Origin: an uncultured Gammaproteobacteria bacterium
Lineage (GTDB): Bacteria > Patescibacteriota > Microgenomatia > UBA8517
Direction: 5' to 3'
Length of the DNA: 40,198 bases
Assembly: GCA_964540475.1 (NCBI GenBank)
Contig: CAZIMC010000002.1
Span: 177,551-217,748 of the forward strand
The position numbers and the translations under genes are program-made. Position 1 is the first letter of the stretch, and each line of letters begins with the position of its first letter. Shown here in pieces: positions 38,253 to 39,872 of this stretch. Below the pieces are notes generated by a model. That model saw only the letters and a list, made by a program, of their open reading frames with translations, did no database searches and was not told where the DNA came from.

Positions 38253-38326
38253 GCGGGATTAGTTGAACGGCTCAACATCTGCTTTCCAAGCAGAGAAAAG
38301 GGGTTCGACTCCCCTATCCCGCTCCA
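38253..38326 (+). tRNA. tRNA-Gly(TCC), CCA encoded; probable attachment site
   Basis: Anticodon arm tctgc-TTTCCAA-gcaga; ends TCCA. Confidence 0.92.
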
Positions 38327-39872
38327 TATCGGAATCATTTTCCGAAAGAGTGGTTTTGTCCCGTGTTATCAAGCCATTTTCAGGTTCGAGCCGACCTTTT
38401 TTCTCATCGAACGCTTTTTCAGCTCTTTTTAGAAAGATAAACGCTTTTTTCCCGTCAATTCGCACTAATCTGTCTTTTAGAAACAGGTTCGAGCCGAGAA
38501 TGCGCAGGACAGCTCTTTTGACTTCAATGTCGTCTACGTTAAAGATTCTAGTAACATTTGCTGCAAAATGTAAGGTCTCTTCCATTGTCTTTGTCCATGA
38601 GGCTATACCATCAGTTTCGATACTTTGTTTAGTTTGTTTCTCCTCGGTCAGCAACCGAGCTTTTTCCTTTTGATACTCTTCTTCACTAATCATGCCATCA
38701 ATCTTCATCCCATAAAGTGACTTTTTCTCAACTAAAATGGTATCCAAACGCTTACTAAGTTTTCCTTTCTGTGCACGCTCAAATTCGAACTCTCTATCAT
38801 TCCTTCGCTTCAAGCTCTTTTTTATCCAATCAACAAAGGCTGGTTTTATTTCCAAACTTGCAACAAAATCTCTAACCTGTTTTTCTACCTCATCACCATT
38901 AAGATAGGGTTGGTGACATGGTCCCAACTTCTTAGTGCAACGAGCATAAACAAAAGTTTGTGAAGTTCCAGAGCGCTTATAAATCTTAGTTTGTCTCTCT
39001 GCCGTGATAGCTGCACCACATTCTCCACACTTAAGAAGCTTCATGAAGTAGAAATTATTACGCTGTTTAAAGACTCTCTTGCGACCATCAATGATGTCTT
39101 GAACTCTTTGGTACTCATCAATAGTAATCATCGCTCTGTGCTTACCAAGATGTCTCTCGCCGTTGTAATCAAACATTCCGGTATAAAAAATGTTGCGAAA
39201 GAAACGAAATGACTCGGTTATACTCACTGGCCTACCATTTTTCCTCTTCCCACGTAGACCCATCGCAGTGATTTTGTTTAGAGAACTAATAACAGTCTCG
39301 TCTCCCGTCATCATCATCTCCCACCACTTTCGACATAAATCAAAGCGCTCAGGATCTGGAAGCACTTCTTTCTGACCCTTTGGTTTGAAGAAGTCATTCA
39401 TATAACCCAATGGAGCTGATCCAGGGCGCCATCCGTTTTGAACTTTAGTATTCATCCCTCGCTTTACATTGTCAGAGAGATCCTTACTAAACTTAGTAGC
39501 CATACCAAACTCAATGAATAGAAAAGTAGAATTATTGCGATCGTAGTCCATTGTGGGAGTAACAATCTGCATCCCATTGTAGTCAACGTGATCGATGAGA
39601 GTGCCACCTTCTTTCGCATTACGGCAAAGACGATCGGCTTTCCAGCAAACGATGTGGGTTGCTTCACCCTTACCAACACGATCAACCATCGATCTGAATT
39701 CTGGTCTTTGGTCTGGACGTTTAGCAGACTTACTCTCTTTGTATATTCCAAGCACAATGAAGCCCTTGTCCTGGGCTACTTCTTTGCATGTGCGCTCCTG
39801 ATCGTCTAGGGAAAGTATTTGCCGATCTTTATCTTCCGAAGATTTCCTACAGTATATAAAACAGGTTTTCAT
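38259..39872 (-). CDS. large serine recombinase (integrase)
   Basis: YCRKSSED (catalytic Ser), VCWKADRLCRN, GWRPGSAPLGY recombinase domain, CGECG..C..C Zn ribbon, coiled coil; the last codons read antisense through tRNA-Gly. Confidence 0.93.
   Translation of the reverse strand: MKTCFIYCRKSSEDKDRQILSLDDQERTCKEVAQDKGFIVLGIYKESKSAKRPDQRPEFRSMVDRVGKGEATHIVCWKADRLCRNAKEGGTLIDHVDYNGMQIVTPTMDYDRNNSTFLFIEFGMATKFSKDLSDNVKRGMNTKVQNGWRPGSAPLGYMNDFFKPKGQKEVLPDPERFDLCRKWWEMMMTGDETVISSLNKITAMGLRGKRKNGRPVSITESFRFFRNIFYTGMFDYNGERHLGKHRAMITIDEYQRVQDIIDGRKRVFKQRNNFYFMKLLKCGECGAAITAERQTKIYKRSGTSQTFVYARCTKKLGPCHQPYLNGDEVEKQVRDFVASLEIKPAFVDWIKKSLKRRNDREFEFERAQKGKLSKRLDTILVEKKSLYGMKIDGMISEEEYQKEKARLLTEEKQTKQSIETDGIASWTKTMEETLHFAANVTRIFNVDDIEVKRAVLRILGSNLFLKDRLVRIDGKKAFIFLKRAEKAFDEKKGRLEPENGLITRDKTTLSENDSDMERDRGVEPLFSAWKADVEPFN

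Follow-up and report, generated by a model that had tools for sequence, protein, structure and literature searches.

Mx8 integrates into a tRNA gene, and the integrases of the SSV-type viruses are split on integration into large N- and C-terminal parts. In the mycobacteriophages BPs and Brujita, which have integration-dependent immunity, attP also lies inside a gene, and integration at a tRNA site changes the C-terminus of the gene product. The canonical large serine integrases have attP outside the int ORF, and their targets are mostly protein-coding or intergenic. The ssrA-specific islands of Dehalococcoides use the serine recombinase DsiB, which inserts at the 3' end of the tmRNA gene, a tRNA-like target; they have direct repeats of about 20 bp, and we know of no described split of their recombinase gene. 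The attP of Mx8 lies within the integrase coding sequence, and on integration the gene acquires a novel 3' end and its product another C-terminus (PMC6070905), by which intP is converted to intX (Tojo, 1996, as cited in PMC4383910). In the SSV-type fuselloviruses of Sulfolobus, the integrase gene reaches over attP, and integration into a tRNA gene divides it (PMC4383910). According to the Islander paper of 2015, no serine integrase was known to use a tRNA gene as its target (PMC4383910). Our literature search, in which subscription journals were thinly covered, retrieved no description of a serine integrase that spans attP or targets tRNAs.

The stretch of DNA analyzed here has a length of 40,198 nt (the window), belongs to G000, the very small genome of a CPR bacterium, and contains an integrase gene that ends inside a tRNA-Gly gene of the opposite strand. 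Comparison with related sequences makes it very probable that this junction is the attL of a temperate tailed phage, the large serine integrase of which would have inserted it at the extreme 3' end of the sole tRNA-Gly(TCC) gene, and that integration swaps the tail of the integrase.

The integrase gene and its overlap with tRNA-Gly(TCC)

The assembly of G000 comprises 816 kb in six contigs. The integrase is encoded by a minus-strand ORF of 537 aa at 38259..39872, and the features at this end of the window are the following:

38253..38326, plus strand: tRNA-Gly(TCC), predicted by ARAGORN; host gene up to the core, last A of CCA (38326) phage-derived
38259..38324, minus strand: tail of the integrated form, 21 codons plus TAA, antisense host tRNA DNA
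38302..38320: B arm of attL, with the T-loop motif GGTTCGA at 38302-38308 and a further 12 nt before the core
38321..38325: core GCTCC, tRNA positions 71-75, shared by attL and by attR on C3:107790-107794
38326..38355: P' arm of attL, phage side, encoding the integrase linker ...SENDSDM; conserved in the attL of G061
38325..39872, minus strand: phage-encoded integrase body, residues 1-516, from Pfam, alignment A1, and the model of P0038
39906..40160, minus strand: ORF of 84 aa, next upstream gene to the integrase
40161..40198: end of the contig, within the prophage; the window ends where contig C2 ends

The 537-aa ORF matches the Pfam families Resolvase (PF00239, residues 5-147, 3e-22) and Zn_ribbon_recom (PF13408, residues 278-335), and weakly also Recombinase (PF07508, residues 196-264), and therefore it was classified as a large serine recombinase. 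The catalytic motif YCRKSS, of the type Y-x-R-x-S, gives S11 as the nucleophile, and Y7, R9, and S11 as well as the zinc ribbon cysteines C281, C284, C310, and C317 are invariant in alignment A1. Judged by its sequence, the protein is a large serine integrase on each feature that is checkable here. The order within residues 1-516 is catalytic domain, recombinase domain, zinc ribbon, coiled coil, C-terminal subdomain, and linker.

The ORF and the tRNA gene overlap by 68 nt. The codons of E517 to N537 and the TAA stop codon (38259-38261, tRNA positions 7-9) lie inside tRNA-Gly in antisense orientation, and the codon of M516 straddles the CCA end. The ORF call, the ARAGORN prediction, and the length of the overlap thus confirm the claim of the first-pass annotation of this DNA that the C-terminus and the stop codon of the integrase lie within antisense tRNA-Gly. 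Its claim that no other tRNA of the window has an encoded CCA also held in a check of the 3' ends, in which a full genomic CCA after the discriminator was found for one of the 14 tRNAs, namely tRNA-Gly(TCC). The assembly contains no other Gly-TCC gene. The 14 tRNA genes lie within 25 kb (12935-38326) and include a Leu-Pro-Gly run with spacers of 15 and 26 nt.

The contig ends 326 bp past the integrase start codon. The ORF of 84 aa in this interval has counterparts at the same position with identities of 86% in G061, 66% in G062, 65% in G054, and 59% in G060. Searches against Pfam, PHROGs, and Atlas yielded no family match for it. [quoted passage not shown]

The second junction and the probable carrier prophage

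A blastn-short search of the whole assembly revealed no second tRNA-Gly fragment, the sole matches being due to T-arm similarity with other tRNAs. Such a fragment is missing because the core comprises only 5 nt. A scan of IMG/VR yielded a 54-kb contig, G061, which encodes an integrase with 89% identity that also adjoins tRNA-Gly(TCC). One end of G061 matches the end of C2, and the other end (nt 101-370) matches the final 315 nt of C3, another contig of G000. The distance from core to core in G061 is 54,063 nt, and its genes encode a major head protein (6e-36), a large terminase TerL (1.6e-87), a head-tail adaptor/portal, tail fibers, and an amidase endolysin; by its gene content, G061 is a tailed prophage. 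The attR of G000 and the 40-codon tail lie at C3:107790-107913 (L066:3790-3913), the end of contig C3. The layout of G000 would be C2 up to tRNA-Gly, the integrase and the ORF of 84 aa, the unassembled interior, the tail with attR, and then C3 in reversed orientation.

We infer the join of C2 and C3 from relatives, because the two junctions are on separate contigs and the interior is unassembled. The join is supported by three observations. The reconstructed attB flank aligns with the native flanks of unoccupied tRNA-Gly genes in G022 and G042, the neighbor gene of tRNA-Gly in G008 and G022 has a homolog at C3:106189-106929 in the expected orientation, and the small ORF that precedes the integrase has conserved counterparts (G054, G060-G062). 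A search for TerL in the G000 assembly was negative, and therefore the interior of the prophage was not binned or not assembled; the assembled parts of the element amount to 1.9 kb and 0.3 kb. A third reconstruction, after G000 and G061, was possible within a single contig of G054, where the prophage has a length of 63.9 kb. The viral contig G062 (L058) was considered as a possible attP form and rejected, since it stops about 10 codons before the core and lacks the tail.

The first-pass annotation had proposed a search for the other att copy beyond position 40198. The copy was indeed found, however, not on C2, which ends there, but at the end of C3. The annotation had also named the lack of a second tRNA-Gly fragment downstream among the observations that would refute its proposal. 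This turned out to be the wrong test, because the junctions share only 4-7 nt: no second fragment exists, and yet attR was found.

Although phages often carry tRNAs, and although the distance from the junction to a contig end is 1.9 kb and the Logan unitigs break at 38304-38324, it is extremely improbable that the tRNA-Gly gene is phage-borne or that tRNA and integrase are a chimeric join at the contig end. The gene is the sole Gly-TCC gene of G000, it is near-identical to the tRNA-Gly of integrase-free relatives, and it belongs to a conserved Leu-Pro-Gly cluster, which is also present in G008. Moreover, G054, G060, and G061 each provide an independent example of this junction, as do dozens of database proteins with antisense-tRNA tails. 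The Logan unitigs from four runs were short; they contained no joint with an empty site or a circle, and none of them spanned the stretch. For 20 candidate sequencing runs, the fraction of sampled words present was at most 0.65 in any run.

Two side observations concern the prophage ends. The first gene inside the attR end of G061 (L061:408-686) encodes a protein of 92 aa with a weak AbrB/antitoxin-like PHROG match (7e-4), and from this match it is possible that a regulator is encoded beside the split-off tail; in G000, the corresponding region is situated past the end of contig C3. In G054, a second, weaker remnant of an integrase tail is present 3.3 kb outside attR (G054:C1:2913-3032, E-value of 3e-5 to the tail profile), which suggests serial occupation of the same tRNA-Gly site.

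Attachment sites and the two forms of the integrase

Read in the sense direction of the tRNA, attL of G000 is ...TATCCC-GCTCC-ATATCGG... and attR is ...GTCACCA-GCTCC-GGGTCTT..., and GCTCC corresponds to the last two acceptor-stem bases, the discriminator, and the CC of tRNA-Gly. The comparison of attL and attR gave the cores GCTCC for G000, GCTCCAT for G061, and GCTC for G054, with GCTC as the minimal common core. We infer that the crossover occurs within GCTC, because G061 shares GCTCCAT and G054 only GCTC. A short att core, as in serine integrases, where it surrounds a crossover of 2 bp, is thus present in all three cases. The encoded CCA is a by-product of integration, because its A comes from the phage. 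At all three occupied Gly-TCC sites, CCA is followed by [T/G]AT, while 12 of the 19 unoccupied tRNA-Gly sites in relatives are devoid of a full CCA, and some of the unoccupied sites with CCA carry remnants of integrase 3' ends.

The distance from GGTTCGA to the core is 12 nt in the host B arm versus 17 nt in the phage P arm (G000, G061, and G054), and the same offset of 5 nt is found in the tRNA-Leu element of G008, in the form of a CCGAG insertion. For the LI integrase it has been reported that the outer motif bound by the zinc-ribbon domain is 5 bp nearer to the center in attB than in attP (PMC3783163). By this resemblance, the T-loop sequence GGTTCGA of the tRNA would be the outer motif, recognized by the zinc-ribbon domain. 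The shift of 5 bp between attB and attP is confined to the left arms, and the right arms have no clean shifted motif. A scan of attP and attB for dyad symmetry revealed none that is centered on the core.

In four genera, the tRNA 3' end recurs in one or two additional degenerate copies (TTATCCCGCT) 42 nt downstream of unoccupied tRNA-Gly(TCC) genes, located at G008:C1:393257-393400 (g8 19758-19900), L018, L019, and L021; in antisense reading they give repeated "ERD" motifs. The attR flank of G000 has the same 3'-end module, and the integrase linker contains a degenerate copy with the same 42-nt spacing (window 38360-38366). These copies may be scars of earlier integrations or hairpin inserts.

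The reading frame crosses the attP core in the reconstructions of G000, G061, G054, and G008. In G000, the integrated form of 537 aa ends with ...SDM-ERDRGVEP..., and reconstruction and translation of attP, as proposed in the first-pass annotation, gave a form of 556 aa that ends with ...SDM-ELVTVIGSNHF... followed by 29 residues (tail P0001, L066:3791-3910). The tail is conserved, and the result could be repeated within single contigs for G061 and G054. The integrated and the attP form have 542 aa and 553 aa in G054, and 541 aa and 573 aa in the tRNA-Leu element of G008. Uninterrupted genes for integrase plus tail also occur, though in only four of the best 120 homologs (P0037, P0038, P0049, and P0050); uninterrupted ORFs have 551-569 aa, and P0038 is located on a contig of 45.7 kb. 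The presence of these four in public data means that the whole gene exists. The proposal that an att site lies in the 3' end of the integrase gene, and that the two states encode different tails, is therefore supported by attR, by the two lengths in G000, and by uninterrupted proteins like P0037 and P0038. In addition, the tail occurs by itself in the small orphan ORFs P0002-P0004, of which one is from Candidatus Curtissbacteria. At L042 (G045:C3), a tail ORF starting with ELVTV... (6481-6669, minus strand) lies about 5 kb from a truncated integrase homolog of 430 aa, which has no tRNA gene immediately beside it; the locus may represent a similar element that is small or decayed.

It could be argued that the functional integrase ends before the core, with attP just downstream, and that both tails are meaningless read-through. 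In the integrated state an open stretch of 21 codons in one frame has about a one-in-three chance at this composition, and the integrated-form tails vary freely with the host tRNA. For the attP form, the first part of the tail shares its DNA with the P arm and is constrained at this level: the tails of G000 and G061 are identical in 35 of 40 residues, their first 60 nt are identical, and therefore the conservation of the first ten or so codons could reflect the DNA site and not the protein. However, the conservation runs over 120 nt, which exceeds a half-site of 25-30 bp. The uninterrupted ORFs include the tail, and the motif SN..L....L..QLQ.LK[DE]H is kept across subfamilies that have different tRNA targets and different P-arm DNA. 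The retention of the distal helix motif in the Leu-targeting subfamily, with its different P-arm DNA, argues for a role at the protein level. In the AlphaFold2 model of P0038, the domains typical of serine integrases, with long helices at 342-416, are followed by a disordered segment at 492-517, to which the core maps, and after this linker by two helices at 519-527 and 530-550 with pLDDT values of about 76-84. We know of no canonical large serine integrase with a two-helix tail encoded across attP. Taken together, read-through without meaning is an improbable explanation for the tail.

According to the preferred reading, integration by the phage's own serine integrase, attP would lie inside the integrase frame, in the linker-coding part before the two-helix C-terminal tail, and the circular phage genome would encode the whole protein of 556 aa. 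Recombination in the core GCTC(C) of 4-5 bp would place the final 40 codons at the opposite end of the prophage (attR, the C3 end), and the integrated frame would continue for 21 codons into antisense tRNA-Gly, giving the 537-aa form. The tRNA-Gly would remain whole, because the exchange is limited to the few bases at its end; the A of the phage would complete CCA.

By analogy to IntP and IntX of Mx8, our best guess is that the full-length enzyme of the circular genome is integration-proficient and that the enzyme made by the prophage is altered or weakened; with about equal probability, the tail swap is a neutral by-product. It is conceivable, though somewhat doubtful, that the swap is a built-in state switch, with the two-helix tail being needed for, or tuning, the synapsis of attP and attB. 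If so, the tail-less form of the prophage would be weaker, locking lysogeny, or would be tuned for excision with a partner, and the topology of the substrate would set directionality, besides any RDF, across a large tRNA-targeting family of CPR bacteria.

The integrase family and comparison with known systems

A six-frame search of 60 relatives detected integrase homologs in 47 of them. Among the 11 best loci, 10 have a tRNA gene adjoining the 3' end of the integrase gene, and at 19 of 23 homologous loci the ORF stops inside or just past a tRNA on the opposite strand, the 3' end of which faces the integrase. This overlap is not due to chance, because tRNA genes make up about 0.4% of the genome. 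The targets in the relatives are the tRNAs for Leu, Gly, Trp, Ile, Asn, Gln, Ser, Pro, and Glu. Among 82 database homologs examined, most C-termini are plainly antisense tRNA, and comparison at other tRNAs, a check suggested in the first-pass annotation, showed that the tails differ and that each matches its own host tRNA. In the closed genome of G008, the distance between tRNA-Leu(TAA) and tRNA-Pro(TGG) is 18 kb versus 15 nt in the window, and the insert of 16.7 kb that contains the integrase is flanked by direct repeats of 21 nt from the tRNA-Leu 3' end. The tRNA-Leu(TAA) of the window is the empty counterpart of this occupied site. The locus L053 (tRNA-Asn, 26% identity) was rejected as a case of tail swap, since its integrase stops short of the core, although a repeat of 22 nt is present.

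Several copies per small genome, with at least four homologs in G000, might be taken to indicate a domesticated recombinase, i.e., a fixed and immobile chromosomal gene beside tRNAs in CPR bacteria. Most loci also have no tRNA-fragment repeat within 18 kb, clear direct repeats of the tRNA 3' end being found in only 2 of 19 loci; however, long repeats are missing at most loci because the core has only 4-7 nt. Domestication is highly improbable in view of the unoccupied tRNA-Gly sites in many relatives, of the nearest homologs (65-68% identity), which are found in other families of the same class, of the 89%-identical copy in a 54-kb tailed prophage with both junctions, and of P0005, which is 97% identical and has a tail from a different tRNA-Gly sequence.

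Further joints with glycine tRNAs were observed. P0005 adjoins a gene with a different acceptor stem, a near-identical integrase in run X1 is joined to a CCC-anticodon gene, seen as a loose end at window position 38299, and many homologs with 60-88% identity carry "PWEG" tails, which fit tRNA-Gly(CCC). It seems that this phage group uses any Gly tRNA that ends with GCTC. G000 itself contains at least three further integrase homologs (C1:264889-266397, C1:4657-5991, and C1:88982-90382), and two of these likewise abut tRNAs on the opposite strand (Pro-GGG and Lys-TTT).

Serine integrases are favored tools for genome engineering, and the control of their directionality is an active structural question. 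The family described here targets many different tRNA genes, contrary to the statement of 2015 (PMC4383910). It apparently reads the universal T-loop as a part of attB, and the free phage and the prophage encode different forms of the enzyme, which offers a natural and testable case of substrate-dependent architecture. In addition, it provides candidate integrases and attB sites for CPR/Patescibacteria, which are devoid of genetic tools. Prophage boundaries at such sites escape island finders that are based on tRNA fragments, because only 4-7 nt are duplicated.

Like BPs and Brujita, the present system has a phage attachment site inside a gene, but these phages have a split repressor gene and an integrase of the tyrosine recombinase type, whereas here the integrase gene itself is split. 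The domain order, the very short core, and the 5-bp motif shift in attB are shared with the canonical serine integrases of Listeria A118 (LI), phiC31, Bxb1, and SPbeta (SprA). With Mx8 the system shares an integrase gene that spans attP and a C-terminus that changes on integration. However, the Mx8 integrase is a tyrosine recombinase with a longer att identity, in contrast to the large serine recombinase with a core of 4-5 bp described here. The SSV integrases are archaeal tyrosine recombinases as well, and here only a 40-residue tail is removed from the integrase. Therefore, the integrase of G000 does not belong to the Mx8/SSV type, because its chemistry is that of serine and not of tyrosine recombinases, but the layout of the gene is alike.
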